Shown here piece by piece: positions 12,960 through 45,368 of a stretch of 64,000 nt of DNA. The DNA is from a virus (lineage: Duplodnaviria > Caudoviricetes). Position 1 is the stretch's first letter. The number at the start of each line of letters is the position of its first letter. Location of the stretch: IMG/VR virus record IMGVR_UViG_2775506876_000001, positions 1 to 64,000 of that record; one strand, written 5' to 3'. Both the position numbers and the translations under genes were made by a program. The notes beneath the pieces are model-generated. The model was not told the DNA's origin. It saw only the letters and a list, made by a program, of their open reading frames with translations, and ran no database searches.

Positions 12960-13028
12960 TTGACAAATTTAAACTTTTATGCTATAGCAAATAAATTCTA
13001 TATTTTTAAAATTGAAAAGTGACTTTTT
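12960..13028 (+). promoter_or_regulatory. Sigma70-type promoter followed by palindromic operator-like site
   Basis: TTGACA-17 bp-(TGc)TATAGC, then AAAAGTGACTTTTT at 13015-13028; near-identical inverted copy at 30064-30135. Confidence 0.7.
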
Positions 13029-13044
13029 GAATTGCCAGACAAAT

Positions 13045-13073
13045 AAAAAAACCCTAGATTTAAAGTCTAGGGT
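13045..13073. terminator. Intrinsic terminator downstream of the tail tube gene
   Basis: accctagatttaaagtctagggt hairpin with a flanking A-run (U-tail on the minus strand). Confidence 0.65.
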
Positions 13074-19133: not shown

Positions 19134-20357
19134 ATGAAGCTTTTCAGGATAGATTCAAATAACAAAAAACTGGAATGGCAAAAACTTGATAATGGTTCGT
19201 ACAAAGCCTATGTGACACTAGGTATTGCAGATTTACCATTAGAGTACCAAGACATTTCTGGTAACAAGTATATTGAAACTATTACTGAAAATGAATTATT
19301 TAACGATGATAGTTTGCTAACTGCTCACGGTTTACCAATAACTTTTAACCATCCTAAATTTGGCATATATAACCAAAACGCCGAAAATATTTTAGTTGGT
19401 TCTACCCTGGAAACTTATTTAAGACAAGACAAAGCTTTATTGATGCCAGCAATTATTACTGATAAAAGAGCGATCGCTCTAATCGATAATGTGTTGGAAA
19501 ACAATCAAAATATCTTTGTTGAATTAAGTCCAGGGTATTGGTTAAAGGATAAACAGTTTAACAAAGATTCAAATGTTTGGGAGCAAATTAACCGAACTTA
19601 CGATCATTTAGCTTTGTTGAACCCTGGTGAAGGTAGAGGCGGTCAAAAAATTATTTTAAGAACAGATTCAAATATTTCTTTGTGTACCAGTCTAGTTACT
19701 GAAAACACTATTGAAAGTTACGAATCTGATTATGGTATCCAAACTATTGAAACGGAAATTGCAACAATGACAACTCGGAAGATCTCTTATCAAGAAAAAG
19801 ATTATGAAGTTCCAGTACTTCAGCAAGATGGAAAAGATTACGTAGCTTTTTCAGAAGTTCAAGCACTGTTAACAGATTCAAATCTAAGGATTGATTCTAA
19901 ACAGAAAAATTTGAAATCTGAAATCGATTCAGCTAACGGTAAACTAGCAGCTTTACAAATTCAATTAGATTCTAAAGCTGAAATGATCACTTTAGATCAA
20001 GCATCTGGAATCATTTCTGAATCAATCGAACTTTGGCAAAAAGTCGAACCAATTTTTAAAGCTGATTCTAAAGATTTCAAACCTGATTACAGTCTAAATC
20101 CTACACAAATCAAAGAACTTTATATCAAAAAGTTCCATCCCTCTATTAATTTAGATAATCAATCAGCCGTATTTGTTGATGGTGTTTGGTCTGGCATTAG
20201 TCCAGGGATTGTAAATCAAGTTAAAGATAATGCTTCTAACAAAGTTCAAGCACAACTTGACTCTTTGAAATCTGCTAACACTGTCCAAACAGATTCGGCC
20301 GATGATGAAATTGAAAAAGCTTATAGAGAACTAGAATCGCGCGTAAGTTCTAAATAG
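19134..20357 (+). CDS. Prohead protease/scaffold (DUF2213-like)
   Basis: PITFNHP, ELSPGY, YDHLALL..GRGG; coiled-coil C-terminus. Confidence 0.82.
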   Translation: MKLFRIDSNNKKLEWQKLDNGSYKAYVTLGIADLPLEYQDISGNKYIETITENELFNDDSLLTAHGLPITFNHPKFGIYNQNAENILVGSTLETYLRQDKALLMPAIITDKRAIALIDNVLENNQNIFVELSPGYWLKDKQFNKDSNVWEQINRTYDHLALLNPGEGRGGQKIILRTDSNISLCTSLVTENTIESYESDYGIQTIETEIATMTTRKISYQEKDYEVPVLQQDGKDYVAFSEVQALLTDSNLRIDSKQKNLKSEIDSANGKLAALQIQLDSKAEMITLDQASGIISESIELWQKVEPIFKADSKDFKPDYSLNPTQIKELYIKKFHPSINLDNQSAVFVDGVWSGISPGIVNQVKDNASNKVQAQLDSLKSANTVQTDSADDEIEKAYRELESRVSSK

Positions 20358-20971: not shown

Positions 20972-21931
20972 ATGGATGGAATTATACAAGCTGGGCACTA
21001 TTTAAGACAGCAATTAAGAGAAGTTACACCGGACATTATTAGAACCCAATACCCTGAGTTATGGGGTTATGAAGGTAAACATCATACTGTACAGATGAAT
21101 TTACCATTCGGTTTACGCGAAATTTGGCAATCTAGAATCGATCATTCTGGTGTTGCTGTAAATTTTGGTGGTAAAGCTACCGATATTCCTTTAGCAAATT
21201 TTGGTATCGGTGCTGATAAATACAAAACAGTTATCGGTGTTTTAGGTGCTGAATGGGATTGGATGGAATTACAATCTCAAGAACAAGCCATGAAAGCCAA
21301 TTTACCTACAGTAGATTGTGTAACCGAATATCGAGCAGCACTTGAGAAAGGTTTACGTGAATGGGTACATTTAAAAACCCTTTTTGGTGACACAACCATA
21401 GGGTTTAATGGTTTGTTTAATCACGCTGAAATTGAAGTTATTGATACAACAACAAACCTTAATACAGCAACATCCAGGGATTTACAGAACTTCTTTAGAG
21501 GTATTATTAAAGACTTCAAAAAGAATTCTAGATTAACTGCAAGTCCTACAAAGATTCTAGGATCTATCGACTTAATTTATGCTTTGAATGCACCATTTAC
21601 CGATGCGGCTGGTGCTGTAACTGCTAAAGGTTCAGCTAGAGAAGCGTTATTAACTAGTGGTGATATTGCAAGTATTGATGAAGTTAATGAACTTTCCAAT
21701 AGTTACTTATCTCAATTTGGTGTAACTGCTGCTAGCACAACTAAAGACGCTTTCATACTTTATGAACCATCAGCCGAAACATTGTATAAGCGTCAATCTA
21801 GAATTCTAACAACTCCGGTTGGTCTTAAAGATGATCAGATGACTTATAGAACTACCGGACTTGTAGCAGTTTCAGAAGTCATTATCAAACGTCCATATCG
21901 AGTTAAAATTTACACTTATCCTAAATTCTAA
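20972..21931 (+). CDS. Major capsid protein (DUF2184-like)
   Basis: 319 aa; ATDIPLA, FGD..GFNGLFNH, VIIKRP. Confidence 0.85.
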   Translation: MDGIIQAGHYLRQQLREVTPDIIRTQYPELWGYEGKHHTVQMNLPFGLREIWQSRIDHSGVAVNFGGKATDIPLANFGIGADKYKTVIGVLGAEWDWMELQSQEQAMKANLPTVDCVTEYRAALEKGLREWVHLKTLFGDTTIGFNGLFNHAEIEVIDTTTNLNTATSRDLQNFFRGIIKDFKKNSRLTASPTKILGSIDLIYALNAPFTDAAGAVTAKGSAREALLTSGDIASIDEVNELSNSYLSQFGVTAASTTKDAFILYEPSAETLYKRQSRILTTPVGLKDDQMTYRTTGLVAVSEVIIKRPYRVKIYTYPKF

Positions 21932-22248: not shown

Positions 22249-25200
22249 TTGATTATGCCTTTAATTGATGGATTTATAGGAACTTCAGGAACCGATTTAT
22301 CTGGTAGAACTGCTTATAACGGTTCAACATGGACTAGAACCAGAAACGATGGTGATAATACAAATTCAAAATTAATCATAAGTCCATCGGGGCGTGTAAG
22401 ACAATGGAAAAAAATAAATGCTTCAAACTTTAGTGTTCACGCAAATAGTACACAAGTTAACACCACAAATTTTTATGAAGTTTTAGGCATTTTTAAATGG
22501 TATGGAGATCCTGATTTAATATCTTCAAGCCGTTCAAGTATTGGTTTTGGTTTAAGATATTTGAATTCTAGTAATAGTGGTTATGCTGCTACTATTAGAT
22601 ATTCTGAAGCGACTGGATCAACAAAATTATTTGCAATTTATAATTTACAAAGTAACCAATATCCTAAGCAATCAGGAACTAATGAGAGTAGATGTCCATT
22701 AGTAACAGGACATAGCTATGCCATAATTATTCAAGCCGTTTCCGGTGCAATAAATGCTGGTGTGTTCAGTCTAACAACTGGTAAATGGTTAAGCGGTGGG
22801 CTGTTTGATACCATTTCAAATACTTTAGTAGTTTCATCAAAAGTTATAAACCCAAATATAACCCAGGTTGGTACACCTGCTATATTTGCAATTTTTGATC
22901 CGGCAACAAATCCTGCTGATGATGTTTCTTACAGCACTATACAATTTCACGGTGCTGTCAGTGATGTTTTGTCTGAAGTTCCAAAATTAACTGTGGTTTC
23001 AGCACCACAGCAAGGTTTATCAGGACAAGCATCGACTAACTTTACTTTAGGATATACAGGGATTTTAGCACCAGGGAAAAATTATACTATTGTTCCCAGC
23101 GATTCGGGTGCTGGTGGTGTTTTTACACCTTCAACATTTAATATAAGTACTACAAACACTACAGTAAGTTTTACTTATAAACCACCATTATTAAATCCAA
23201 CCGATCCGCCTCAAGAAATTCCATTATCTTTTACGGCTGATGGTGTTTTATTAACCCAATCGAATTATACTAGTTATTCTTCAAACACCAATATTACTGA
23301 TGATGGAACAAACCCAACATTTGAATATGTTGGATACACTAGCCCTAATTTTAGGGTAACAATCAACGGTGTAAATCTGCCAACAACTGTTAACTTATCT
23401 GATAACAGTAATGGTGTTTTTACTCCAAATACTTTAACATTTACCTACCCTGGACAAGAACTAACTTTTAAATACAGACCTAATAGTTTAGGTGATATCA
23501 CATTATTTATAACGGGTAATAATTTTACAACAAAAACTTATAACTTTCAGGGATTAACACCAACAGTAGATATTAAATCAAGTCCAAATGTTGCTTGGCT
23601 CAACTATGCTAGTAAAACTTTCACTGTTGGTTTAAATGGTGGTGTTAGTCAACTGGCCGGTTCAATACCTTTAACTTTTAACTCTAGTGGTGGAACTTTC
23701 ACACCTGCTAATGTAACTTTAACTGGTGCAAATCCTACAGCGACTTTTACATTTACACCAAACACTACTGGCAATAAAACTATTACGATATCTTCAATAT
23801 ATGCAATATCAGCAACTAAAAATATTTTTGTTGGATTAAAACCGACAAAAATAACTTTAACTTTACCTAGTAAAAATAATTGTGAAATCAGCCAATATTC
23901 AGAAGCTTTTAATATTAGTGTTGATGGACTTGTTATCGATAATATAGAAGTTTTAGTAACTGATAATAATAAAAATTCTATAATTCCAAAAATAATATTT
24001 AGTAACCCTGATCAGATACCAAATCCGGTAAATAGTAAAGATTTTATAATCAAAGTTTGCAACTCAGAAGCATTTATATTAACTGCAATATCACCAGGAT
24101 TGACATCTAATTCCGTATCATTTACAGGAATTTTGGACACAACTAATTATGATAGAAGTTTCATATTTAATGATGATTTTGAAAGAGGTAACACAACCTC
24201 ATTGGGAAATGGTTGGTTACATGGTTCTCAATATTCTTTAGTTGATGGAAAAGTTGTCACAACTAACAAAACATTATCTGATGTTATAACTTTTTTCAGA
24301 GGTCAAGTAGTCAGAACCACTGTTAGATGTTTCCTAGATGAAGAATCTTTTACATTAACAAGTGCAGAATTAAACGCTTTTCATAAAGTTATTGTAGGTG
24401 ATACGGTTCTTGGTAATAAACAAATACCGACAAGCACAACCGTTACAGCGAAAGCATCTAACAATTCATTAACACTTTCTAAAAAACCGACAGACAGTAA
24501 TCCTAAAGACTGTTTAAGAGGTATTAGTATTGTAAATTCTGAAATAGAATGTGAAATTCAACCACCATTAAGTTATCTTTGGAATCAGATACACACAGCA
24601 AGAATTATCAGCCGTAAACAAGAAAACAAAGACGCTAAATATTTTGTAGATATCAGTGCTGAAAACAAAGGTTCAACAATGGTTGTGATAGCATCTTTAT
24701 TTACAAAGATTTCAACCAGGGAAAAGCCTGATAGAATTTATGTAAGAAAAGTTTATTTACAAAATACAGCACACACTTTCAGATTTACCACAATAACTTA
24801 TGATTCTACAACAGTTTTAGAATTACGTGCTATTAACCCTAATAATGGAATAACAACTTTTATTTTTAGGGTTGTCAACGGTGAACCTGAATTACAAAAA
24901 CCTGGTGATATTGGTATAAGCCACAATGGTGTTGCAACATTTAATAGTTTCTCTTATTACTCAATAACTACTAAAAAGAAAAATTCACCATTAAATTTTT
25001 ATGTAGATATAAATAATGGGAATGATAACAACAATGGTAGTTATTCAGCACCATTTCAAAATATTTCTAAAGCCTTAAGTAAATATGAAAAAGGTAGAAA
25101 TCTGATAATTGTAATCAGACCAGGGACATACAACACAACATATACAGAAGAAAATCCATTAATTCTTAGGGATGGTTGCAGTATTGTAGGTGAATCAACA

Positions 25201-25614
25201 GCACCAGTAATAAAAGCAAGTGTCTTAATTGATCAGAGTTCCGATAGTTCTTTAAATAATTTGATATTTGATGGTAACAACTATCAAATTAAAAAAGCTG
25301 TGACAATCAGAGATGCTTACAATTTTATTTTCAAAAATATAGAAATTTACGGATACCGTGAAACAGCTTTAGATATTCAGCGAGTATCAGAAGCCGAGTT
25401 TAGCGATTTTAAAATAACAGACAGTAGTTATAGCAGCTTAATTCTAGGTTACATTCCAAGCTTCAGCACCGATAAGCAAACATCAGTTATTTTATTTGGT
25501 TTCTTGTTCAAAACGATTTTTAGAGATTTTTATATAAACACCCTGGACTCTAGAGGTGGTCAAGCTTTCTTGGCTTGGTCTGAACATTGGGAACGTTTGA
25601 ATAATTATTTATAA
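22249..25614 (+). CDS. Large virion/fibre protein with Ig-like repeats and DUF1565/beta-helix C-terminus
   Basis: Repeated GG.FTP..[LF]T...FTYxP units; YVDINNGND..G...PFQNISKAL. Confidence 0.65.
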   Translation: MIMPLIDGFIGTSGTDLSGRTAYNGSTWTRTRNDGDNTNSKLIISPSGRVRQWKKINASNFSVHANSTQVNTTNFYEVLGIFKWYGDPDLISSSRSSIGFGLRYLNSSNSGYAATIRYSEATGSTKLFAIYNLQSNQYPKQSGTNESRCPLVTGHSYAIIIQAVSGAINAGVFSLTTGKWLSGGLFDTISNTLVVSSKVINPNITQVGTPAIFAIFDPATNPADDVSYSTIQFHGAVSDVLSEVPKLTVVSAPQQGLSGQASTNFTLGYTGILAPGKNYTIVPSDSGAGGVFTPSTFNISTTNTTVSFTYKPPLLNPTDPPQEIPLSFTADGVLLTQSNYTSYSSNTNITDDGTNPTFEYVGYTSPNFRVTINGVNLPTTVNLSDNSNGVFTPNTLTFTYPGQELTFKYRPNSLGDITLFITGNNFTTKTYNFQGLTPTVDIKSSPNVAWLNYASKTFTVGLNGGVSQLAGSIPLTFNSSGGTFTPANVTLTGANPTATFTFTPNTTGNKTITISSIYAISATKNIFVGLKPTKITLTLPSKNNCEISQYSEAFNISVDGLVIDNIEVLVTDNNKNSIIPKIIFSNPDQIPNPVNSKDFIIKVCNSEAFILTAISPGLTSNSVSFTGILDTTNYDRSFIFNDDFERGNTTSLGNGWLHGSQYSLVDGKVVTTNKTLSDVITFFRGQVVRTTVRCFLDEESFTLTSAELNAFHKVIVGDTVLGNKQIPTSTTVTAKASNNSLTLSKKPTDSNPKDCLRGISIVNSEIECEIQPPLSYLWNQIHTARIISRKQENKDAKYFVDISAENKGSTMVVIASLFTKISTREKPDRIYVRKVYLQNTAHTFRFTTITYDSTTVLELRAINPNNGITTFIFRVVNGEPELQKPGDIGISHNGVATFNSFSYYSITTKKKNSPLNFYVDINNGNDNNNGSYSAPFQNISKALSKYEKGRNLIIVIRPGTYNTTYTEENPLILRDGCSIVGESTAPVIKASVLIDQSSDSSLNNLIFDGNNYQIKKAVTIRDAYNFIFKNIEIYGYRETALDIQRVSEAEFSDFKITDSSYSSLILGYIPSFSTDKQTSVILFGFLFKTIFRDFYINTLDSRGGQAFLAWSEHWERLNNYL

Positions 25615-25681
25615 TAGTTTTATAACAATTCTATAATATTTGTTTATTTGTCTGACAATTCAAAAAGTGACTTTTTAAAAT

Positions 25682-28600
25682 ATGGCAGAAAATATTATAT
25701 TTCCAAATAACGCTAACTTGCTGATTCCTAGAAATTTTACAATAAATGGACAAAATTATACAGCAACAATTAATCTTAGAACCGGACAACCTTTTAATAT
25801 AGACAACACTGGTGCAACTGATGTTAGTCAAGAAATGCAAGATTTTCTTGACTGTAAAATGACTTATGGTGGGAACAGAATTAATTATTTACCCAATGGA
25901 ACATATTTAGTTAGTAAAACGTTGTATTGGGCTGGTTATCTATTTATAAACAATGTTGCTCTTATAAATGTCACTGTAACTGCTGGTAGTAATATAATCA
26001 CGGCTAGTTCAGGAACTTTTACAAATGTCCAAGTAGGTCAATCTGTTGTTGGCACGGGTATTCATCCAGGGACAACAGTAACAGCAGTCACAAATACGGC
26101 AAGTATCACAATCAGTCAAGCAGCATGGACAAGTTTTAGTGAAGGAAATAGACAGAAGCGTCAAATTTTACAAGGACAAAACAGAGAATTAACTAAAATC
26201 AAGCTTGCAAATAATTTAGGATCAAATTTTAATCAAAAAGCTGTAATCAACACGGGTTTAATTCCTGCACAGAGATTTAGAAATGCTGTCAGGGATTTGA
26301 CAATAGATATAGGTTCTGGAAATCCTTTAGCTATCGGTTTGCAATTTTGTGCGCATAACCAAGGTGTAGCCAGAAATTTAAATATTATTTCAAGTGATCC
26401 TAATAAAGCTGGTAGAGCAGGTTTAGATCTTAGGAATACCAATGAACCTGCACCGATGCTTTGTAAAGATATTATGATTGATGGGTTTGATTATGGTGTT
26501 TGGGCTTGGTCTGGTGTTGGGATTACTTTATGTGATATTACAGTAAAAAATCAATTGCAATACGGTATTTATAATACTAGTGGTAATTACGGTGCTACCC
26601 TATTTATGGAAAATATTACATCTATAAATAGTGTTCCAGCATATTACAACATTTACGGTAATAATTTTACAGCTTGTGTTTCCCTGGTCAATTGCAATTT
26701 TCATAACAATGGTAATCCTACTAATGCGATCGCACTAAGTACCAACTGTTTAGCATTTTTTGCAAGAGGTTTGAACATCTCTGATTATGCAACAGCTATC
26801 CAAAATACTGCGGATGGTACTAATTTAACTGGTAATATTTCAAATTACGAATATTACACAGGAATGCTAGGAACCGGAACAAATACCAGTCAGACAACTA
26901 ACTTGGGTGTTCCTGATAATATTGCATTACCAATTGAACCAACACCAGTAGTAACTTGGGAACAAGATTTTAGTAAATGGGTATGTCCCCAAGATGTTGG
27001 CGGAGTAATTTCAAGCACTGTTGATCAATCAACTTTTATCCAAGCTGCAATTGATATTCCGGGTAAAAATACTATTTATTTTCCGAGAGGAACTTATTTA
27101 ATTAACAACAATATTTATATTCGTGGTGATATAAAACGTTTTATTGGTTGTGAAGCTTCCCTGACTGGCATTGGAAAAATAATAGTAGGTGATGGTTCAA
27201 GTAACACAGTAATTATTGAACGCTTCGATGGTCTTGCAGGCAATCAAATTCAACATTTAACTAGCAGAACTTTGATAATATCTAGTGTTACTTCAAACAC
27301 TGATAACGTTAGGACTTATACAAATATTTCAGATGATTTAACAACTATCGGAACAGGAAAAATATTTTGTGAAGACTTTGTAACCGATTCAATAGAAATG
27401 ATAGGTAACAGAGGATTCTTTAGACAATTTAATCCTGAAACTGGCAGCAGTCCTGACAAATTAATTTTAAGAAATAGTGCTTGGTTATTTTGTGTCGGAA
27501 TGAAAACCGAAAAAAATCCGACACCAATAAGATTAGAAACTAATTCTAGATTCGATGGTAGCTGTTTTTTCTATTCGACAAGTACTAATGAACCTGCTAA
27601 AGTTGAACCCTTGGTAGAACTTACTGATGCTGAGGTTTCTTTAACTTTTACAGAATCCGTAAATAACAATAAACCATTTTTGGCTAATGTTATCGAAGAA
27701 AGAGCGGGACAAGTTAAAATACTTTATAAATCTTCATCAGGAACTACTGGTGAATCAGTAGCATTGACAACTGTTAGAAGACTTCCTAGTGATGATATAA
27801 ATATCAATGATATTTCACCAGGGTTTGTAGACTTGGTGATTGAAAACGGTAGTATCGTTGTAGGTGATGTCAACAATGCTTGGAATGAAAATTTAGAATT
27901 AAAATATAGAACCCAACAATCAGCGATCGCTATCCATTTAGCAGACTTTAGGAATTCTAAAATTCAATACAATCAATTCAATGGAATGTTGTCTATTTGG
28001 AATTCCAAAAGCAGTAATATATTAATTCAATATAATCAATGGGATTATGAAAAATCTGATAGTACTGGGTATTGTATTGGATTACATGATACTGGTTTAA
28101 AAGTACAATTCAACATTTTCAAAAATTACGGATACGCTTTTAGAAATGTATTAAATATAATCCCTGGTGCTTATGTTGATAACACAAACATGCCTAGCCC
28201 TACCATAAACAACAATATATTTTGTAGACCTTATTTAAATTCTGTAGCTCAATTTGGTGGTAATAAATTTACTAGTTTTCCTTTTAATTTCTACAATAAC
28301 ACCGTAATCTTAAACAGTAGTTATTCAGCTTTTAAATTTAGTTACGGCTTTAACAATTCTAGTGCTATTTCATCAACCACAGAAGCCACCAATGTTTATA
28401 GTAAATTCCAAAATAATATATTCATTTGTAATTCTGAAAGTGTTGGCAGCACAGGATTGGCTACAGGAAGTGTTACCATCAGCTACAATGCTTTTCAAAA
28501 TACCACGGTAATCGGAGCAAATACTTTAAATGTTCCGGTAGATTTTGAAAGTACAAACCCTAGCACAAACGTATGGGAATATAAATTAAGATCTACAAGT

Positions 28601-29179
28601 ATTTTGATTAATGCAGGTATCCCGATTACGGATATAACACCTATATCTGCGGTGTCTATAGGTGCGTTGCAATATGGTAATCCCTGGACAATCACACAAC
28701 CAGGTAAATTTAAAAATACCATGAATGTGTTGCCAGAATACGAAATACTAGCAACACTTACATCGGATAACAATCAAAATATATTGCCAACAATTATGAA
28801 TATGACAGCAACTAAGTTAAATTCGATAACATTCCCAGATTATCAAAGACTAGAAACGCAGTTCAAATCTGGTGAAACTTTTGCTCAAAGAACATCTTTT
28901 TTGAGTAATGGAATGGTTCTATCAATTACCCAAAAAATGAATCATGAAGAATTAGAAAGTCTATTAAATTTTTATAACTCTGTTGGCGGAACCCTAAATA
29001 GTTTTGTTTTACCAGAGGAATTTTATAAATTACCTCAAATAATCCAAAACCGAATTTACAATTTAAACGCTATACAAAAATGGAAATTTGAAAAACCCCC
29101 AATAGTTAGCCCGATAGTTGCAAGCTTTTTAAGAGGTTGGTATCAAATCGAAATTTCATTAATATCTGTTATCAGATAG
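25682..29179 (+). CDS. Tailspike-like polysaccharide depolymerase (pectate-lyase-3/GH55-like beta-helix) with C-terminal distal-tail-like domain
   Basis: YLPNGTYLVSKTL, AQRFRNAVRDLTID, TIYFPRGTY; last ~125 aa resemble the N-terminus of 38407..40017. Confidence 0.7.
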   Translation: MAENIIFPNNANLLIPRNFTINGQNYTATINLRTGQPFNIDNTGATDVSQEMQDFLDCKMTYGGNRINYLPNGTYLVSKTLYWAGYLFINNVALINVTVTAGSNIITASSGTFTNVQVGQSVVGTGIHPGTTVTAVTNTASITISQAAWTSFSEGNRQKRQILQGQNRELTKIKLANNLGSNFNQKAVINTGLIPAQRFRNAVRDLTIDIGSGNPLAIGLQFCAHNQGVARNLNIISSDPNKAGRAGLDLRNTNEPAPMLCKDIMIDGFDYGVWAWSGVGITLCDITVKNQLQYGIYNTSGNYGATLFMENITSINSVPAYYNIYGNNFTACVSLVNCNFHNNGNPTNAIALSTNCLAFFARGLNISDYATAIQNTADGTNLTGNISNYEYYTGMLGTGTNTSQTTNLGVPDNIALPIEPTPVVTWEQDFSKWVCPQDVGGVISSTVDQSTFIQAAIDIPGKNTIYFPRGTYLINNNIYIRGDIKRFIGCEASLTGIGKIIVGDGSSNTVIIERFDGLAGNQIQHLTSRTLIISSVTSNTDNVRTYTNISDDLTTIGTGKIFCEDFVTDSIEMIGNRGFFRQFNPETGSSPDKLILRNSAWLFCVGMKTEKNPTPIRLETNSRFDGSCFFYSTSTNEPAKVEPLVELTDAEVSLTFTESVNNNKPFLANVIEERAGQVKILYKSSSGTTGESVALTTVRRLPSDDININDISPGFVDLVIENGSIVVGDVNNAWNENLELKYRTQQSAIAIHLADFRNSKIQYNQFNGMLSIWNSKSSNILIQYNQWDYEKSDSTGYCIGLHDTGLKVQFNIFKNYGYAFRNVLNIIPGAYVDNTNMPSPTINNNIFCRPYLNSVAQFGGNKFTSFPFNFYNNTVILNSSYSAFKFSYGFNNSSAISSTTEATNVYSKFQNNIFICNSESVGSTGLATGSVTISYNAFQNTTVIGANTLNVPVDFESTNPSTNVWEYKLRSTSILINAGIPITDITPISAVSIGALQYGNPWTITQPGKFKNTMNVLPEYEILATLTSDNNQNILPTIMNMTATKLNSITFPDYQRLETQFKSGETFAQRTSFLSNGMVLSITQKMNHEELESLLNFYNSVGGTLNSFVLPEEFYKLPQIIQNRIYNLNAIQKWKFEKPPIVSPIVASFLRGWYQIEISLISVIR

Positions 29180-29377
29180 TTCAAGATTATCCGATGATTT
29201 CACAAATTCTATAGAATTACGTGAATTATCAAAACCGATGTTCAACTTAACAATCAAATCTAAAAATGGTTGAAAAATTACTAAAAGTGTAGCTGCAATT
29301 AAAACTCTTTCGGTGATTTTTGAACGAAAGAGTTTTACAATACTACTTTCAGTTCTACTATCTAGATTAATTATCAT
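29159..29377 (-). CDS. Small membrane protein
   Basis: 72 aa, one hydrophobic segment, overlaps the upstream ORF. Confidence 0.4.
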   Translation of the reverse strand: MIINLDSRTESSIVKLFRSKITERVLIAATLLVIFQPFLDLIVKLNIGFDNSRNSIEFVKSSDNLELSDNRY

Positions 29378-29711
29378 CGTTATCTACCATTTTTTCAGAA
29401 TAATAATCTTGATCGTCAATGCTATCAATATTATCATTCAAAAAATTATGGACTTTATCTGACTTAAAGTAGATTTTTATAATTTCAAAAAGTTTTTTTT
29501 GTCTACGTTCTATCCTAATTATTCTTTGATTTAAAATTGTCCATTTTTTAGGAACATCCCAATACTTAATAAGCACAAGTAACATTAATGCTGCACCAAC
29601 CATTAAAGCAGCTAGCTCTTGCTCAACGAGTCTTTGTACAGTTTTTAAAACTAAATACTCTATACTAAGTTGTGATTCAGCATCAGCAAAAACAAATAAA
29701 TTTAATAACAT
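29367..29711 (-). CDS. Membrane protein, possibly holin-like
   Basis: 114 aa, TM segment followed by basic then acidic tail. Confidence 0.45.
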   Translation of the reverse strand: MLLNLFVFADAESQLSIEYLVLKTVQRLVEQELAALMVGAALMLLVLIKYWDVPKKWTILNQRIIRIERRQKKLFEIIKIYFKSDKVHNFLNDNIDSIDDQDYYSEKMVDNDDN

Positions 29712-29859
29712 AAACTTATACGTCAGTAAATCTATTATATTTAATAGTTATCTAAGACACAATAGGTATTTACACTATTATGTAATTTTGTCAATTATCT
29801 TTAAATAATCTTTACAATATAAAGTTTGCTAGAATTTTAGAAATAATTTAGCAACAGTT

Positions 29860-30048
29860 ATGACTAGAAACAAAATTGTAATTTTTTCAGGAATACTGGT
29901 TTTATTAATAGTTGTCAACGCAATAACCTACATTAACCAAAGTTGCTCAAAAATAATTAAAGAAGCTGTAGACCAGGGTGATATACAAGTTTTACAGGAT
30001 ATCAACTCTGGTAGAAAATATTGCAGACCCGCAGGAAAATTATTTTAA
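29860..30048 (+). CDS. Small membrane-anchored/secreted protein
   Basis: N-terminal hydrophobic helix, two Cys. Confidence 0.5.
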   Translation: MTRNKIVIFSGILVLLIVVNAITYINQSCSKIIKEAVDQGDIQVLQDINSGRKYCRPAGKLF

Positions 30049-30198
30049 TTTGTCAGACATTATAAAAAGTGACTTTTTAATTTTAAAAATATAGAATTTA
30101 TTGTCTATAGCATAAAAGTTTAAATTTGTCAAGGGTATTTATAATAATTTTCAGATTTTGTAGCCAGATTGAAAACTACAAAAAATATTTGGTTGTTG

Positions 30199-30518
30199 GT
30201 TTCAATCCCTGATAGGGATTATTAGGTATCGCTAGATTCATTACTGAGGAAGATTACAAGGGCATAGGTTTCAATCCCTGATAGGGATTATTAGGTATTG
30301 CTAGAATTACGTAATGAGGCTGTTGAGTTTTTACGTAAGTTTCAATCCCTGATAGGGATTATTAGGTATTGCTAGTTTAGGCTTTTTAGTGCTGATATCC
30401 CTATTAACGTTTCAATCCCTGATAGGGATTATTAGGTATTGCTAGATTTTTAGCTGGGATATCTTACGCTCCAATTGGTTAGTTTCAATCCCTGATAGGG
30501 ATTATTAGGTATTGCTAG
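30199..30518 (-). CRISPR. CRISPR mini-array: 5 x 37-bp repeats, 4 spacers, no cas genes in the window
   Basis: Plus-strand repeat GTTTCAATCCCTGATAGGGATTATTAGGTATTGCTAG starts at 30199, 30268, 30339, 30409 and 30482; spacers are 32, 34, 33 and 36 bp; the only variant repeat is the leader-distal one. Confidence 0.97.
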
Positions 30519-30612
30519 GGCTACCTTTTGAAAGTCTTTGTCTATAAGGTTTTCACGGTTCGGTTGCGTCAATCTACTTAAAAATATCATTACAGCCATT
30601 AAACTGTCAAGG
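30519..30612 (-). promoter_or_regulatory. CRISPR leader
   Basis: Minus strand reads TTGACA...gattgacgcaaccgaaccgtgaaaaccttatagacaaagactttcaaaaggtagcc and then the repeat; resembles Nostocales array leaders as I recall them. Confidence 0.7.
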
Positions 30613-30671
30613 TTTTGGTCAAATAGCTATAGATCAACACTGAACCAATCAATTCAAAATCAAAGCTTTTC

Positions 30672-31784
30672 TAGGGCATTCTAGACCAGGGTAAAAGCAT
30701 GTATGAATCTAGGGTACTTAGATAATCTAGAACCTTTTAACTATCTATTGTCATTAAAACATCTTATTGCAAATAACTGTACTAGAGTATTTATGCTTAT
30801 TAAGTACTACTGTAATAGTACAGATATTCTCAATAAGCTCAATATTCTCAATAAGACCACAAAATTTTTTGTAGTTTTTTGTAATGGTTTTTGTAGAAAT
30901 TACAAACTACAAAAACCTTATGTAGCAAGGATTTTGTAATAGTTTTTGTAGATTTTGTAGTTTTGAGCCGGATATAAATCTCTACAGGTGTACTAGTACA
31001 GGTGTACTATCAAAGTGTACTAGTAAAATTTATACAAACTAGTACTATCAAAGGCTTATAGAAATCTATGATTTAATCTGGCTAGAGAAAAATAATCATA
31101 AATTTTTGTAGTCCAGGGTAGTTGTACTAACAAAAACCTGAGTAAATCATAAAAAATCTAAATAAGTATTTTTACTTATAAATTTGTACTAGTTATATAA
31201 AGGATAAATTAATATAAGTTTTTCTTATACTTCTTTATGTTTTATATATGTAATACAAATTAAATAGATTATTTGTACTAGTTTAAGTATTTATAACTAT
31301 TTAGGTTTTTGTTAGTACAACTACCCTGGGCTACATAATTTTTTGATTATTTTTCTCTGACCATAGAAAACTAGATATTCATATAAGTCTTGATATATAA
31401 GATTTTCTTGTACTACAAAACTACCTGTTTTTATATTACAGACATACTACAAAGCTCTAGAGATTTATATCCGGCTCAAAACTACAAAATCTACAAAAAC
31501 TATTACAAAATCCTTGCTACATAAGGTTTTTGTAGTTTGTAATTTCTACAAAAACTATTACAAAAAACTACAAAATTTTTTGTAGTCTTATTGAGAATAT
31601 TGAGCTTATTGAGAATATCTGTACTATTACAGTAGTACAAGTAAGTATAAATGCTTAAAATAGTATATGTATAAGCTAAACTTATCAATGAAAACTACAA
31701 AAAGTCTGAAAGCCTTGTAACAACTAGAATCTTTATTCAGCTTGATAAACTAATCGTGCTGCCACCCTGGTCTAGAATGCCCTA
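30672..31784. repeat. Nested inverted-repeat element, copy 2 (inverted relative to copies 1 and 3)
   Basis: Core ~30741-31703 is the reverse complement of copy 1; additional perfect 21-bp outer IR at 30672-30692 and 31764-31784. Confidence 0.95.
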
Positions 31785-31932
31785 TAACTTACCCGATCAT
31801 CGAACAAACCCTTTTGTACTTCCAATGAATCAAGGCTTTTTGTAATCGATTCTGGAAACTACAAAAATTTTTGTAGTCCATTTTGCAACTCTGCGATAAA
31901 CTACAAAATTCAAAAATTGTTTTAAAATACCC

Positions 31933-32002
31933 TTGACAAATTTAAACTTTTGTGCTATAGAGAATAATTTATAAAATATTCAAAATTAAAAAGTCACTTT
32001 TT
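31933..32002 (+). promoter_or_regulatory. Sigma70-type promoter and palindromic site upstream of the nucleotide-metabolism genes
   Basis: TTGACA-17 bp-(TGc)TATAGA; AAAAAGTCACTTTTT at 31988-32002. Confidence 0.7.
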
Positions 32003-32022
32003 AAAATAGTTTTATAATATAA

Positions 32023-32352
32023 GTGTTGAATTTTGGAATTGTCTGCCATCTTTTACAGATGGCTTTACTTATGGATAATCAAGAAAAACCAGATATTCTT
32101 TTGATACTTTCACAAGAACATCCAGAATTAAAAGAATATTTTTTACAGCGTAGAAATATAGGGCTACAAACATACGGTAAACGTTTAAACCCTTTTAATG
32201 GTAGAGATGCTTACAAAGATTTGTTTGAAGAATTACTAGATGCCTGTGCTTATGCATATCAGCTTTATTTAGAAAATCCTAATGATACTAAATATCATGT
32301 GATTTATGAAGCTGTTACTGAATTAACAAAATTAGTTTTAGAGAAAAAGTAA
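32023..32352 (+). CDS. Conserved phage hypothetical protein (all-alpha; the true start may be downstream)
   Basis: R..IG..TYG..L....GRD...DL.EELLDAC.Y pattern. Confidence 0.6.
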   Translation: MLNFGIVCHLLQMALLMDNQEKPDILLILSQEHPELKEYFLQRRNIGLQTYGKRLNPFNGRDAYKDLFEELLDACAYAYQLYLENPNDTKYHVIYEAVTELTKLVLEKK

Positions 32353-32353
32353 T

Positions 32354-32941
32354 ATGACAATTAAAAGTGATCGATGGATCTCTGAGCAAGGCTCTAATCT
32401 AATTAATCCGTTCTGTAACAGTTTGATTAGAAAACAGGATGATCTAAAAGTTATTAGTTATGGATTATCTAGTTATGGTTATGACATCAGATTGTCGGGC
32501 AAAGATTTTAGGATTTTTAAACACATCCCTGGTCAAGTAGTCGATCCTAAAAATTTCGATCCAAAATTTCTTGAAAAAGCCGATTTGTATTTTAACGATG
32601 ATGGTTCAAAATATTTTATAATTCCGGGGAATAGTTACGCTTTAGGTGTTGCCAAAGAATTTTTAGATATTCCTGATGATGTAACTGTTATCTGTATTGG
32701 TAAATCAACTTATGCAAGAGTAGGTTTGATAGCCAATTTAACACCTGGTGAGGCAGGATGGAAAGGTCATTTAACTCTTGAAATCAGTAACAGTTCTAAT
32801 AGTGATTGTATTGTTTATGCTGATGAAGGAATCGTACAATTATTATTTTTCCAAAGTGATGAAAAATGTCTAACAACTTATGAAGCCAGAAATGGTAAAT
32901 ACCAAAATCAATCTGAACAGATAACAATAGCCAAAGTATAA
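32354..32941 (+). CDS. dcd: dCTP deaminase
   Basis: ISYGLSSYGYDIRL, GKSTYAR.G, EAGWKGHLTLEISN, GKYQNQ. Confidence 0.95.
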   Translation: MTIKSDRWISEQGSNLINPFCNSLIRKQDDLKVISYGLSSYGYDIRLSGKDFRIFKHIPGQVVDPKNFDPKFLEKADLYFNDDGSKYFIIPGNSYALGVAKEFLDIPDDVTVICIGKSTYARVGLIANLTPGEAGWKGHLTLEISNSSNSDCIVYADEGIVQLLFFQSDEKCLTTYEARNGKYQNQSEQITIAKV

Positions 32942-33926
32942 TAACTTTGGTATAGGTTTTTTTAATCCTAGAATGATAAAAAGTTCTAGGATTTTTTATA
33001 TAATAGATATGTTCTTAGCTACTTGATTTTATGAATAACATTGTTGAATTATTAGGCTTTTATGGTGGTGATAAAAGAGTTTGTTTATCAGCTTGGCAAA
33101 GTACTACAGAAGAATTAGGAATTGATTTACCCGATGATATTTCTGATAGGGTTGATGTGATTTTTGAATATCTATGTACCCAGAAAAAGAAAACACCTTT
33201 TGAATTATTAAATTTTTTAGCTGAAAATCATCACGAAACACCTTTTGAAAAAGCTATTTTAGATTTTCAATTAACAGGTGATATTGCATCACACATACAT
33301 GTAATCAAACATAGAATAAGTAGTGTAAATGCAGAAAGTCAAAGATATAAAGAGTTTATTTATGATCGTTTTTATATTCCTGATGATTGGCAAGGAATTC
33401 AAGCTACTGGTGATGTAACTTGGTTTACTAATTTTGAAGAAGAATGTGTTTTTAGCAATAAAAACGAATATTGGCAAGACATTTTAGAAAATTATAGTCA
33501 ATTAGGGTTTAATTTATATCATCAAGCTATTGAAGATTTAACACCAGTTTTAGGTAAAAAAACGTGCTAAAGAATCAGCTAGATATTTTCTCGGTTATAA
33601 TACTCAAATAAACTTTGACTGGCAGATGAATTTTAGAAGCTTTGTAAATATTCAACAATTAAGAAATAGTGATCATTCTCAAAAAGAAATTCATTACATT
33701 GCCAACACCATGCTTTATTTAGTTGAGAATATCCCTGGACAACCGTTTAAATATTGTTTAAAAGCTTTTGGATTAAAGTCTGATCCTAATTGGTTGTTAA
33801 ATCATCAAAAATTACTTGAAGATTTAAAATTGCTAAATAATCTATAACTTTGGTATAGGTTTTTTAATCCTAGAATTATAAAAAGTTCTAGGATTTTTTA
33901 TATAATAGATATGTTCTTAGTTACTT
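32941..33926. repeat. ~84-bp direct repeats flanking the first thyX (32941-33024, 33844-33926)
   Basis: Near-identical units, each holding a terminator-like hairpin, a TATAAT box and the 5' UTR. Confidence 0.9.
33031..33847 (+). pseudogene. thyX: FAD-dependent thymidylate synthase split by a +1 frameshift in an A7 run
   Basis: HETPFE and KHRISSVNAESQRY motifs; removing one A at 33556-33562 gives GKKRAKESARYFL..MNFRS and joins ORF 33626..33847. Confidence 0.85.
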
Positions 33927-33935
33927 AATGGTTTT

Positions 33936-34745
33936 ATGTTTCAACCTAAAGTCAAAATTATTAAAGATTCGGTTAACGCTGCAACTGGTTCTAGAATTAC
34001 AACTTTTGTTTTAACTTATCATCGTTTTATACATTCTGAGTTCATGACTTATAGAATGTTTTCTAGAAATGCTTCAAGTTCTAGAGCAATTCCTGTAGAG
34101 AAAATGATTCAAAAAGTTATTGATCAACAGGTTGAGCCACTTTATTGGGGTAAGAATCAACCAGGGATGCAAGCGAGTCAAGAATTATCATCAGAAGAAA
34201 TAGAGCAAGCCAGATTACAATGGAATGCCGCAAAAGCAACAGTAATTTCTTATGCTCGACAAATGATTGAAAAAGGTGTACATAAACAAATAGTCAATAG
34301 AATTTTAGAACCTTTTTCAACCATTACAGTAATTTGCACATCCACAGATTATCAAAACTTTTTTAATCAACGTTGTCATCCAGATGCACAACCAGAAATA
34401 CAAGCTTTAGCATATTTAATGAAAGCTGAGTATGATAAATCAAAACCTGATATCTTATACCCTGGTGAATGGCATTTACCATTTTATGATTTAGAGAATG
34501 ATAAAGGTATTTTTGGTGATGATATTTTAAAAGTGTGTGTTGGTAGATGTGCAAGAGTTAGTTATTTAAATCATGATGGTAAGCGTAATTTAAGCAAAGA
34601 TATTGAATTACATGATAAATTACTTGTTGCTAACCCAAAACATCTTAGTCCTTTTGAACATGTAGCGATCGCTCAAACTGGTAATAATGCTAATTTTTTG
34701 GATTTTAAAAGTTATAGATATATTTTAGAAAATTCTGGTTTATAA
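33936..34745 (+). CDS. thyX: Second FAD-dependent thymidylate synthase (phage-type Thy1)
   Basis: RFIHSEFMTYRMFSRNASSSRAIP, HKQIVNRILEPF, AQPEI, CARVSY, HLSPFEHVA. Confidence 0.88.
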   Translation: MFQPKVKIIKDSVNAATGSRITTFVLTYHRFIHSEFMTYRMFSRNASSSRAIPVEKMIQKVIDQQVEPLYWGKNQPGMQASQELSSEEIEQARLQWNAAKATVISYARQMIEKGVHKQIVNRILEPFSTITVICTSTDYQNFFNQRCHPDAQPEIQALAYLMKAEYDKSKPDILYPGEWHLPFYDLENDKGIFGDDILKVCVGRCARVSYLNHDGKRNLSKDIELHDKLLVANPKHLSPFEHVAIAQTGNNANFLDFKSYRYILENSGL

Positions 34746-40985: not shown

Positions 40986-43796
40986 TTGATGTTAAACAAA
41001 GAAATCATAGAAATTTTAAAAGATAATCATGGTATTGAAATTACCGAAAACGATTTAGCAGCTATACACGAATTTCAATACTTTCTAGAACTTGATAGAC
41101 AAACCAAATTAGCTTTAACACACTCTGGTGATGTTAACGTTCAAGATGCACCTGTAATCGGTGTTATTTTAGGTGGTGCTTTAGGTGCTTTTGCTGCTCC
41201 ATTAATCGGTGTAGGTTTGCTTGCTGGCGCTTTGATAGGTGCTTCAATAGGTTGGAGATTATTGGGTGGTGGTCAAAAATCTAATAAATCTCAAGATCCT
41301 GTAGAACAAGTTAAAAAACGTGATAGTGCTGTTGCTAATTTTGGATTTAATACAGCACCTTCCATAGTACCTTTAGGTGGTGCTATACCTTTAGTTTACA
41401 CAAATACTGATATCAATGTTAATGGTGGTGTTAGAACCTCTGGATTCATATTAAATTCCAGGGTAGAGACTTTATCAGGCACTCAAAAATTATATGTGCT
41501 TTATGGTCTATGTTTAGGTGAAATAAATTCTATTGAAAACACAAAAACATTACTTGATAATCAATCCCTGGACAACTTTTTTTCTGATGAATATTCACAA
41601 GAATTTAGACTTGGTACAAAAACCCAAACAGGTATAGATTCTTTTCCTTATTACAGTACTGTCAACAATTTATCAACTAACACATACTTTGGTTTTACTT
41701 ACAAGCGTAAAACTACAAACACTGTTAGTTACACAGGTAATTTTATTCAAATAGATCCTGATAACTTAGGAATTTACAATACTTCTGATCGGTTGGTTAT
41801 ACATGATGATGTTTCAACAGTTTTACAACCTTTTAAAATCACAAATTTAAATTTATTTGAAACCAATAAACTTTCTATTAATAATACTATCGCTGTCCAA
41901 AATCAAAAAGAAATATTTGTAACGAATACTGCAACTTTCAAAACTAGTAAAAAGTGTAGTGAAATTCACATAAATTTCGTTTACAGAATATCGGCTAGAA
42001 ATGAAAACAACGATAATATTTATCATTCAGTTATATTTTATTTATATTTGAATGGTGTTTTTATCAGGCAATTGATATTATCAAATAATTCTGATTCTGA
42101 GTTAAAAGGTGTTATCAAATTAAAAAATTTAAGCTATCAAAAACATAAAGTAGAAATCGAATCTAGAAGGTATTTAAATAATGGGATGGTTACACAACAA
42201 TTAGGATCTTATAATGATATTGCTTTTTCAACTGGTGTAATTTTTAACGGTAAGGATGTGCTGCTAGTAACTGGTGCTTATCCACAAGATACTAATGCTT
42301 TAATTGCTAACGGGAATTTTAATTATGAAGATACAAAAAAATTTGTATCTAATGAACAATCAGCACCTTGTAAAATTACAACCGTGAATGAAATAGTTTA
42401 CCCAAGTGATTTAAACCATTTATTCATGGCTAATTATCCGGGTATTGTGTTGGCTAGTTTAATTATTCAAGCTTCCGAGCGTGTGCAAAGTGATCCGAAT
42501 CCTTCATTTTTTATAAGCAAGGGTAGAATTTGTAAAAATATTTTAATGGCTGGTGTTGCTGGAAACGGTAGTAACAATAGTAATTTAATCGATTTAACAA
42601 AGAATTTTATAGCCAGTTTTCCTGCTAATGCTCCTGGAAATTTACGAAACGAAACTTACATTAGAAACCTTGATAAACAAGTTGAAAGCTACGGTTTTTA
42701 TGTTGGTGTTAATAATATTCAATCCCTGGTTAATTTACAATTTGAAGAAAATGATAGATATGTAATTTATGAATTAGGAAGTTCTAACTATTTTCCTGAT
42801 ATTTTCGTTGACTTATTAACCACAAACATTGGTGGACTAGCAGGATTTTTACCAGAGAATCTGATTCAAGACTTTTTTATAGATTATGAGTCAATTGTGA
42901 AATCTAGAAAGTATTGTGTAACTAACAATTATTTTTGGGATGGTGCAATAGATTCTACAATTAATTTTGAAGAATGGGTGACCAGGGAATCATTAACTAG
43001 TTTGTTATTCCCTTGTAGGACTGGTGGAAGATATGGATTAATCCCAGAACAACAAACAAACCCTGTAGCTATTTTTAGTGCTTCAAATATTATCGAGAAT
43101 AGTTACAGTGAAGAAAACGTTCAAATCGATAATTTAAATTGCATACACGTAACTTTTAGCGACGGTACAGACGATTTAAAACCTAAAGTGATCAGCGTGA
43201 TGACTGCTGATGCTTATAACGGTTTAGAACCTCTGTTCCCTGAATCTTTAAAATTTACTAGCATCACTAATCAATCGCAAGCTGAAAAAGTCGGCAAAGT
43301 TTATCTAAAATCTCGGCTAAATCAAACCAAAGTTATAAATTTTTCTACAGGTTTACAAGGTTTCGGTGTCCGCGAAGGTGATTTAATCATCATCCAATAT
43401 TTAACAACAGAACTAGTAAACGAATTTTCAGGATTTGTTGTTTCGCTTGAAAAGAACCAGGGAACATTCCATGATTATTTTTTGAGTGTTCCTTTACCTT
43501 CGAGTTTACCGATTAACTACCCTGGTGTGAACACTTATAAATTATCTAGTGGTAACATAGAACGCTCTAAAACTTGTGAAATTGTTGTTAGTAATAATAA
43601 ACGTTGTCTGAGAATTTATGGTTTATCAAATATTCTAGAATCCGGTGATTATGTAATAGTTACTGAGGATGTAGAAAGTAGAAAAACTTTTAGGGTTAAC
43701 AAAATAGAACCACAAGATGATGGTTCAGTAAATATTCAAGCTCTCCGATGGATTCCTGATATTTTAGATGGTTCTGATTTATTTGTAATCGATTAA
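40986..43796 (+). CDS. Tail tip/host-specificity protein (TipJ-like)
   Basis: 936 aa; Gly/Ala-rich N-terminal segment, LG..IPLVY, GGVR, LC.GEI, EGDLI, FRVNKI. Confidence 0.8.
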   Translation: MMLNKEIIEILKDNHGIEITENDLAAIHEFQYFLELDRQTKLALTHSGDVNVQDAPVIGVILGGALGAFAAPLIGVGLLAGALIGASIGWRLLGGGQKSNKSQDPVEQVKKRDSAVANFGFNTAPSIVPLGGAIPLVYTNTDINVNGGVRTSGFILNSRVETLSGTQKLYVLYGLCLGEINSIENTKTLLDNQSLDNFFSDEYSQEFRLGTKTQTGIDSFPYYSTVNNLSTNTYFGFTYKRKTTNTVSYTGNFIQIDPDNLGIYNTSDRLVIHDDVSTVLQPFKITNLNLFETNKLSINNTIAVQNQKEIFVTNTATFKTSKKCSEIHINFVYRISARNENNDNIYHSVIFYLYLNGVFIRQLILSNNSDSELKGVIKLKNLSYQKHKVEIESRRYLNNGMVTQQLGSYNDIAFSTGVIFNGKDVLLVTGAYPQDTNALIANGNFNYEDTKKFVSNEQSAPCKITTVNEIVYPSDLNHLFMANYPGIVLASLIIQASERVQSDPNPSFFISKGRICKNILMAGVAGNGSNNSNLIDLTKNFIASFPANAPGNLRNETYIRNLDKQVESYGFYVGVNNIQSLVNLQFEENDRYVIYELGSSNYFPDIFVDLLTTNIGGLAGFLPENLIQDFFIDYESIVKSRKYCVTNNYFWDGAIDSTINFEEWVTRESLTSLLFPCRTGGRYGLIPEQQTNPVAIFSASNIIENSYSEENVQIDNLNCIHVTFSDGTDDLKPKVISVMTADAYNGLEPLFPESLKFTSITNQSQAEKVGKVYLKSRLNQTKVINFSTGLQGFGVREGDLIIIQYLTTELVNEFSGFVVSLEKNQGTFHDYFLSVPLPSSLPINYPGVNTYKLSSGNIERSKTCEIVVSNNKRCLRIYGLSNILESGDYVIVTEDVESRKTFRVNKIEPQDDGSVNIQALRWIPDILDGSDLFVID

Positions 43797-44864: not shown

Positions 44865-45368
44865 TTAAATTTTTACCATTTTTCCAACAAAACCTAAGTC
44901 TTGAAAATTATCTTTAAACCTGGTAATAACACTAGATTTATTTGATAAACACATAAACGCGTTGTAATTACGGGGACTTTTACCAGGTTCCATAGTTTTC
45001 CCATCTATCCAGGGTATTCTATTTCTTACAATTACAGTAGGATATGTCAGCAATTCAGGAACTTGAAATAACACAGACTCGCTAAAAGCGGCAAAAATAA
45101 TTGAAACGTGTTTATGTTCTTGAATAGTAGCGATCGCTTTGATAGCCCAAAGTTTAGCAGGTGTCGGTGGATTGGTATACACAAAATTATGTTTCCAAGA
45201 TATTTCTAAACCGTTAACACCTTTGATAGGGCAAGGATCGAAAATGTCTTTAGTGTCAAAAGTTGAGTAAACTTTATTCCAGATATACCCTGGTGTGTAG
45301 TACTCTTGTGATGGTTTGTGATTTCCAAGTAATGAATGATTATTCATAATTTTAAGCTGCTTTAGCAA
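44865..45368 (-). CDS. Phage-type DNA N6-adenine methyltransferase-like protein
   Basis: EYYTP, FDPCP, NGL..SW, VYTNPPT (variant of NPPY). Confidence 0.7.
   Translation of the reverse strand: MLKQLKIMNNHSLLGNHKPSQEYYTPGYIWNKVYSTFDTKDIFDPCPIKGVNGLEISWKHNFVYTNPPTPAKLWAIKAIATIQEHKHVSIIFAAFSESVLFQVPELLTYPTVIVRNRIPWIDGKTMEPGKSPRNYNAFMCLSNKSSVITRFKDNFQDLGFVGKMVKI

Follow-up and report, generated by a model that had tools for sequence, protein, structure and literature searches.

A cas-less CRISPR-DR5 mini-array in an integrated temperate phage of a cyanobacterium carrying a type I-D system

Cas-less arrays in phages and the array of the prophage

[quoted passage not shown] The N-1 array (KU234532.1; Chenard et al. 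2016, PMC4916379) has been described as comprising five 37-nt repeats of the DR5 type and four spacers on a phage without cas genes; its transcription takes place in the course of infection (PMC4916379), and it is the type I-D Cas6 of Anabaena, Alr1566, that preferentially cleaves its repeat (bioRxiv 10.1101/2020.04.14.041012). We now describe an array of the same layout in a 64,000-nt stretch of DNA registered as viral (IMG/VR record IMGVR_UViG_2775506876_000001, positions 1 to 64,000; hereafter ‘the window’), which turns out to be part of a temperate prophage in a cyanobacterial chromosome. The array does not represent a new principle, and N-1 is the closest known case.

Direct reading, a repeat finder and Tandem Repeats Finder concur on five 37-nt direct repeats and four unique spacers at window positions 30199-30518 (Table 1), with start-to-start distances of 69, 71, 70 and 73 nt and with the minus strand as the sense of the CRISPR RNA (crRNA). 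Four of the five repeats are identical, and the copy at 30199-30235, which is the one furthest from the leader, carries a single change (T>C when read on the plus strand; in the sense of the crRNA, repeat position 6 has G in place of A). The identical copies match the Rfam family CRISPR-DR5 (RF01318) on the minus strand with 41.6 bits, the gathering score being 40; the variant copy is absent from the matches at this threshold. The minus-strand repeat folds into a hairpin with an 8-bp stem and a 3-nt loop (-8 kcal/mol; 4 of 200 shuffles fold equally well), followed at the 3' end in crRNA sense by the 8-nt handle ATTGAAAC. With up to three mismatches allowed, these five sites are the only ones in the entire 9.96-Mb genome, and the prophage holds no solitary repeat copy beyond the array.

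The last 95 nt of the leader align without gaps and in register to four DR5 leaders of the host (48-53 of 95 positions identical, a value reached by none of 5000 shuffles), to the YongM leader (53/95, likewise in register) and to the N-1 leader (42/95, reached by 4 of 5000 shuffles). Conserved in this alignment are a TTGACA -35 element (∼90 nt ahead of the leader-proximal repeat), a -10-like hexamer and the box TTGACG.AAC.G.ACC.TGAAAACC..ATA; the -35 box and a ACCTTGAAAACC box are common to the leader of the prophage and the ∼120-nt leader of N-1. A promoter is predicted at precisely the conserved -35 position: its TTGACA/TG-n-TATTTT site ties for the top score (10/12) among promoter-like sites in 29300-32100 and is, among the top-scoring sites of that interval, the only one combining a perfect TTGACA with a TG extension. 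Leader homology and promoter site taken together settle the polarity of the array, and hence place the variant repeat at its trailer end. We conclude that the mini-array is a true CRISPR array of the DR5 type, whose leader is homologous to those of the host and carries a predicted promoter. An earlier note on this DNA, made from the sequence alone, had described the five repeats, the four spacers of 32-36 bp, their strand, a leader with TTGACA and the leader-distal position of the variant repeat, and had named N-1 as a precedent; repeat finder, Tandem Repeats Finder and Rfam bear out every detail of repeats and spacers, leader and polarity were as stated, and the precedent is a true one.

When compared with N-1, the prophage repeat shares the 3' 24 nt and differs in the 5' 13 nt, and the spacers of both arrays have no known targets. 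N-1, however, belongs to another lineage and has been studied as a lytic phage, whereas the present phage is integrated, possesses an integrase and attachment (att) sites, and carries its array in a different genomic neighbourhood. Kinship of the two phages was considered and rejected: the N-1 terminase is not among the listed matches of the prophage terminase, and the prophage capsid matches no phage record. YongM likewise has DR5-type repeats and a conserved leader, but it is a lytic phage with two repeats and one spacer. Its mini-array is located at ∼62763-62873 (L011:1498-1608), one of the repeats lying under a coding sequence annotated as hypothetical protein. Literature searches listed no further cyanobacterial prophage with a DR5 array, which is not proof of absence in print.

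Chromosomal counterparts have been described among heterocystous cyanobacteria, in Anabaena PCC 7120 as group 2 / type I-D orphan DR5 arrays (Reimann et al. 2020, bioRxiv 10.1101/2020.04.14.041012), which feature a hairpin with a perfect stem and a 3-4-nt loop as well as an 8-nt 5' tag, and which are remote from cas genes and served in trans by the I-D Cas6. Those arrays are host DNA, while the prophage array is part of a mobile element, and none of the host arrays shares its repeat variant. Outside the cyanobacteria, cas-less arrays that rely on the Cas proteins of the host have been reported for Sulfolobales viruses (Medvedeva et al. 2019, PMC6858448) and for Clostridioides difficile prophages (cited in PMC4916379). 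For viral mini-arrays the exclusion of related viruses has been proposed, and demonstrated for SPV1/SPV2 (PMC6858448, PMC11656645); as reviewed, they comprise one or two spacers that match related viruses, and repeats identical to those of the host (PMC11656645). The prophage array differs in having four spacers, a repeat that agrees with that of the host at 31 of 37 positions, and no matching virus that we could find. Finally, RNA anti-CRISPRs (Racrs; Camara-Wilpert et al. 2023, PMC10651486) are phage-encoded copies of host repeats as well, but are described as solitary repeat units; here, a leader precedes five repeats, and the spacers between these are of full length.

The prophage and the type I-D system of its host

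The window corresponds to C1:638735-702734, minus strand, of a large two-contig cyanobacterial genome of the filamentous type, and lies in an island of low GC content (∼C1:626-705 kb; window 31.6%, genome 41.4%). An exact 28-bp direct repeat has only two copies in the genome, C1:626020-626047 and C1:703859-703886, which form the two borders of the element; a tyrosine integrase adjoins the first copy, and in 14 of 14 congeneric genomes the site is empty, with contiguous flanks overlapping by ∼27-28 nt. Att repeats, integrase, empty congener sites and phage genes together identify the element as a 77.8-kb integrated temperate phage, with the array ∼46 kb and ∼31 kb inward of its borders. The earlier note had taken the array to be phage-borne, which holds for the DNA as such; the phage, however, is not a free one but an integrated tailed prophage. 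Unitigs from two DNA runs span both array ends into phage sequence (30108-30227 and 30489-30784) with zero differences, so that a chimeric join with host DNA, which that note had named as a possible objection, did not appear; the two runs possibly derive from the source sample, and the unitigs thus do not constitute independent support.

No cas gene was detected inside the prophage. A genome-wide search with the Pfam families of Cas1, Cas2, Cas4, Cas6 (two families) and RAMP, six in all, gave no match there, the 25 Pfam families that match the prophage best include none of Cas proteins, and a PADLOC scan of its 69 open reading frames (ORFs) of at least 75 amino acids (aa) yielded no Cas protein except a marginal Csx1 (expectation value (E) 9e-4); the ORF of 3204 aa was covered by Pfam alone. 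That the array is without cas genes of its own, as the earlier note held, is consistent with all of these scans.

The host, on the other hand, possesses a type I-D operon that is complete (C1:837-850 kb) and lies ∼165 kb away from the array of the prophage; it encodes cas3', cas10d, csc2 (Cas7d), csc1 (Cas5d), cas6, cas4, cas1d and cas2, all in open frames and with full-length NCBIfam matches above cut-off. Genome-wide there are one Cas1, one Cas2, two Cas4-like and two Cas6 matches of PF10040 (the I-D cas6 at C1:839.6-840.4 kb and a second one at C1:1744 kb), and no match of the Cas6 family PF01881; the only Cas1 and the only Cas2 are those of the I-D operon. A RAMP cluster is located at C1:1733-1740 kb, outside the prophage. 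The earlier note had named a full cas operon at another place of the contig among the possible objections to its view: such an operon does exist on the same chromosome, but it lies outside the att-bounded prophage and does not refute the array being phage-borne. It is instead the likely supplier of Cas proteins.

The closest host repeat is that of the I-D array itself, which agrees with the prophage repeat at 31 of 37 positions and is identical to it over the 3' 25 nt, i.e. over the hairpin and the 8-nt handle. In a comparison with the host arrays, as the earlier note had proposed, the repeat comes closest to that of the I-D system, although its 5' third has diverged, and the leader aligns to four DR5 leaders. 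The exact 37-mer has no match in IMG/VR, in the GTDB species genomes or in the JGI metagenomes. In 388 family genomes the closest repeat among the matches listed agrees at 32 of 37 positions (genus g78); capture of the array from that genus was considered and rejected, since this is practically no better than the 31/37 of the host. In IMG/VR only eight viral contigs carry the DR5 core (L020-L027), with one to three repeats each (most of them a single unit, three with two to three), and none of these is related to the prophage by tblastx.

The array of the I-D operon comprises 15 + 4 repeats and is split by the gene of a group II intron reverse transcriptase/maturase (C1:833396-836902; L006:7772-9283). 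Near-identical sequence occurs upstream of the downstream array fragment at three arrays, including those at C1:6183316 and C1:7621238; the same element has apparently been inserted into three DR5 arrays, which may explain their fragmentation. The genome contains at least nine further DR5-type array segments, and two host arrays (C1:2677157 and C1:964417) share an identical 36-nt spacer. Within the window, Rfam reports no intron.

Next to its leader the array adjoins a non-coding, quasi-palindromic ∼1-kb repeat, which matches its reverse complement at ∼80% identity (with 97% complementarity between the inner arms, 30804-30987 and 31455-31638) and has two further copies, the one at 63373-64397 extending past the window end. 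The copies are parts of three regions, 10543-13049, 30036-32007 and 62770-64000 (continuing to ∼64643), each bordered by inverted flanking elements of ∼110 nt, rich in palindromic CTACAAAA/TTTTGTAG motifs, and found inside the prophage and nowhere else in the genome. Between flanking element and ∼1-kb repeat there are 131 nt in the 63-64 kb copy, 1175 nt including a 114-aa ORF in the 11-13 kb copy, and 521 nt in the array copy (49 nt of trailer, 320 nt of array and 152 nt of leader). Since the contents of the slots differ among the three copies, the leader-array unit resembles cargo in one of three paralogous slots.

Table 1. Array, surrounding elements and selected phage genes (window positions, unless a contig is given)
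Feature	Position	Strand	Remarks
Terminal, leader-distal repeat	30199-30235	-	One substitution compared with the other four
Spacer 4	30236-30267	-	32 nt; oldest by position
Repeat, consensus	30268-30304	-	37 nt; Rfam CRISPR-DR5, 41.6 bits
Spacer 3	30305-30338	-	34 nt
Repeat, consensus	30339-30375	-	
Spacer 2	30376-30408	-	33 nt
Repeat, consensus	30409-30445	-	
Spacer 1	30446-30481	-	36 nt; leader-proximal, newest by position
Leader-proximal repeat, consensus	30482-30518	-	
Leader	30519-30670	-	Last ∼95 nt homologous in register to host DR5, N-1 and YongM leaders
Conserved leader box	∼30519-30575	-	TTGACG.AAC.G.ACC.TGAAAACC..ATA
Promoter-like site	30581-30610	-	-35 TTGACA 30610-30605, 18-nt spacer, TG-extended -10 TATTTT 30586-30581
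Trailer flank	30150-30198	-	49 nt; part of 521-nt stretch unique to this copy
Flanking repeat element, ∼110 nt	30036-30163		Inverted copy 31901-32007; further copies flank two paralogous regions
Quasi-palindromic ∼1-kb repeat, non-coding	30671-31694		Adjoins leader; 97-98% identical to 10817-11764 and 63373-64397
Candidate protospacer of a host spacer	45152-45191	+	Protospacer 45155-45191, GTT 5' flank 45152-45154; 37-nt host spacer matches 32/37 over full length
Prophage, ∼77.8 kb	C1:626020-703886		Contains whole window 1-64000; att repeats, integrase, phage genes
Giant tape-measure/lysin protein, 3204 aa	4-9615	-	TMP_3, M23 peptidase and VanY domains
Terminase large subunit	15149-16576	-	
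Portal	17426-18871	+	
Head protease	19134-20357	+	
Major capsid	20972-21931	+	
Tailspike-like proteins	22249-29179	+	Pectate-lyase-like
Tail fibre	40986-43796	+	J-like
Primase/helicase	59862-62552	-	

As for the phage itself, the array is placed between the tailspike genes and the genes of nucleotide metabolism. Apart from the proteins of Table 1, the prophage encodes a cement protein, a family B DNA polymerase, an intein-bearing helicase, RusA, dCTP deaminase, ThyX and a KilA-N protein; the helicase with its HINT/intein domain (L008:15135-17099) and the polymerase (L008:12505-14553), both on the minus strand, belong to the part beyond the window, and a family B DNA polymerase is also encoded by phages N-1 and A-1. 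The gene of the 3204-aa protein terminates right at the window edge (base 1; listed as 4-9615). In the region of 32354-32941, 33031-33570 and 33936-34745, the dCTP deaminase gene is 65-70% identical at the DNA level to genes in many related genomes, and is followed by two tandem ThyX-like ORFs with overlapping PHROG profile matches, which may represent paralogues or a split gene.

The lineage of the phage is rare. Its terminase has its best matches in Mu-like phages (41-46% identity over about half of the protein, among phage records), its capsid has no match among 50,697 phage records, and no relative emerged when the array region was compared with the phage records by megablast, nor from portal and capsid queries against IMG/VR. 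A capsid homologue occurs in 10 of the 388 family genomes, with 37% identity at best, and the only moderately related prophage fragment (G079:C134, 17.8 kb, capsid 37% identical) is without an array.

Possible functions of the array

The best explanation, to which we assign a probability of roughly two thirds (0.68), is that the cas-less DR5 / type I-D array of this temperate phage is served by the I-D machinery of the host for interference. By analogy with N-1 we infer a chain leading from transcription through processing to interference. The array would be transcribed in the lysogen from its own sigma-70-type leader promoter, and the host I-D Cas6 would cut each repeat after the hairpin. As processing by Cas6d yields an 8-nt handle at the 5' end and one of 29 nt at the 3' end (PMC10212523), the resulting crRNAs would have the 8-nt 5' handle of the host's own. 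They would then load into the host I-D Cascade and direct interference against DNA with the four protospacers, most probably that of competing phages or of other mobile elements such as plasmids, and the prophage would thereby protect the lysogen and hence itself. Finally, the host Cas1-Cas2-Cas4 would add spacers at the conserved leader-repeat junction. Host Cas6, Cascade and Cas1-2-4 are proposed for these steps on account of the similarity of repeat and leader. The mean GC content of the spacers (0.348) is closer to that of the prophage (0.316) than to that of the genome (0.414), a weak hint of low-GC mobile targets; their lengths of 32-36 nt compare with 33-41 nt for the host I-D spacers.

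Several observations weigh against this explanation, the first group of them concerning the repeat. It departs from the host I-D repeat at six positions, all of them within the first 12 nt, and two of these, positions 1 and 3, belong to the leader-repeat junction, which has to be recognised by the integrase. The prophage repeat is identical to no host repeat, whereas the viral mini-arrays of the review cited above carry host-identical repeats (PMC11656645), and the present host may not be the one in which the array evolved. Moreover, transcription, Cas6 cleavage and Cascade loading are all drawn from analogy, and no sister phage was found in which spacer turnover could be compared.

The second group concerns the targets, for none of the four spacers has a protospacer in the sequences searched. 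BLASTn-short against the own genome returned the spacers themselves and no second copy, which agrees with the earlier note, where no self-match had been found; the best non-self match there covers 16 of 16 nt (E 0.044) at the handle-distal (3') spacer end in crRNA sense. Against the 50,697 phage records the whole array (E up to 1) gave repeat matches alone, to N-1 and YongM. Among 72,556 plasmids no protospacer was found, and the nine matching records apparently match via the repeats, as judged from weak E-values and several pieces joined per place. Spacer-repeat-spacer queries revealed no protospacer in the 388 family genomes, near-perfect matches alone being detectable in this way: for spacers 3 and 4 (30236-30338) the best 150 of ∼9,500 matches all overlap the repeat, as do, for spacers 1 and 2 (30376-30481; E up to 1e-8), 13 of 13 foreign matches. 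An apparent spacer-plus-repeat match in one of these genomes (G007:C150) was rejected, since the locus is an I-D array of the usual host kind whose spacer is unrelated. Nor was a target found in the eight IMG/VR loci, the loci of relatives or the distant capsid-bearing loci. The spacer search that the earlier note had proposed has thus been carried out for the own genome, phage records, plasmids and family genomes, though not for the full IMG/VR or the metagenomes; its suggestion that host genes might be targeted finds no support, there being no self-match in the genome.

Alternatively, the array might be passive cargo or a relic, i.e. a leader-array unit taken over from a previous host by illegitimate recombination and devoid of present function. 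The insertion-like occurrence of the 521-nt leader-array-trailer unit in one of three otherwise paralogous regions would fit such an origin, as would a repeat that differs from every repeat of the present host and spacers that have no known targets. On the other hand, four of the five repeats are identical, and the sole change is found in the terminal repeat, the usual site of decay in active arrays; neither the promoter hexamers nor the conserved leader box is damaged, and the host I-D array has exactly this hairpin and this 8-nt handle. Moreover, the comparable array of N-1 is transcribed and its repeat cleaved by a I-D Cas6, as cited above. We therefore regard loss of function as unlikely, although it is the alternative that survives best.

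The identity of the repeats also bears on the history of the spacers. That four copies of a repeat variant unseen in other genomes are identical suggests the addition of some spacers, at the least, after the array had entered the phage lineage, since every new spacer brings with it a second copy of the repeat next to the leader; the identical copies would be explained equally well by a donor array that has not been sampled. It is tempting to go one step further and to speculate, from these four copies and from the location of the cassette in one of three quasi-palindromic regions, which may act as cargo-capture slots of the phage lineage, that the prophage array constitutes a mobile and updatable immune memory, into which the host's only Cas1-Cas2-Cas4 would write at the host-like leader during integration and which induction would carry to new hosts. 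We consider such a memory a rather doubtful proposition.

A third possibility is that the array acts in counter-defence or regulation: the phage crRNAs might serve as decoys for Cas6 and the I-D Cascade, or might repress host genes via partial matches, with the outcome that the prophage is shielded from the host's own CRISPR memory. Racrs and crRNA-like regulators of phages have indeed been described (PMC10651486, bioRxiv 10.1101/2024.10.29.618823, and the review PMC11656645), and a motive to blunt the I-D system may exist, because a 37-nt spacer in a host array near C1:964.8 kb (964787) matches the prophage at 32 of 37 positions (Table 1) next to a GTT flank, which fits the protospacer-adjacent motif of type I-D, GTN (PMC10212523). 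This match suggests that the host lineage met a relative of the phage earlier and that the mismatches now permit lysogeny, reminiscent of the mismatched Anabaena spacer against N-1 (bioRxiv 10.1101/2020.04.14.041012); given that 1 of 30 shuffles reaches its BLAST score, it is suggestive only. That divergence has spared hairpin and handle but not the remainder of the repeat, and that no true target was found, would likewise be in keeping with decoys. Racrs are described as solitary repeat units, however, whereas the prophage has four full-length spacers and a complete leader without any extra solitary repeat, and neither in the host cas region nor elsewhere does a spacer show a notable partial match, the best being the 16 nt at the 3' spacer end mentioned above. 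Counter-defence thus deserves consideration, but we deem it improbable.

The weakest alternative, namely that the array is an ordinary orphan of the host situated in a genomic island or results from chimeric assembly of host array and phage DNA, can point to the many orphan and fragmented arrays of multicellular cyanobacteria (bioRxiv 10.1101/2020.04.14.041012) and to the further DR5-type segments of the present genome, but it is excluded for practical purposes by the position of the array deep inside the att borders of an insertion absent from all 14 congeners, by flanks that are phage-specific repeats, by unitigs across both junctions and by a repeat variant that no host array uses.

Implications for phage-borne immunity in cyanobacteria

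The interpretation that we prefer, an array of the phage served by the I-D machinery of the host, extends what is known from N-1 in that it adds a temperate phage of an unrelated lineage, and one encountered in the integrated state. The genome of its host holds a complete, matching type I-D system alongside the prophage array. Three questions are raised by this coexistence: does the array of a prophage extend the immunity of the lysogen, do host Cas6 and Cascade tolerate divergence in the 5' part of a repeat, and does Cas1-2-4 write into an array of the phage? With array, host Cas genes and prophage all present in one organism, apparently a sequenced strain, the proposed service of a phage array by the host would be directly testable.

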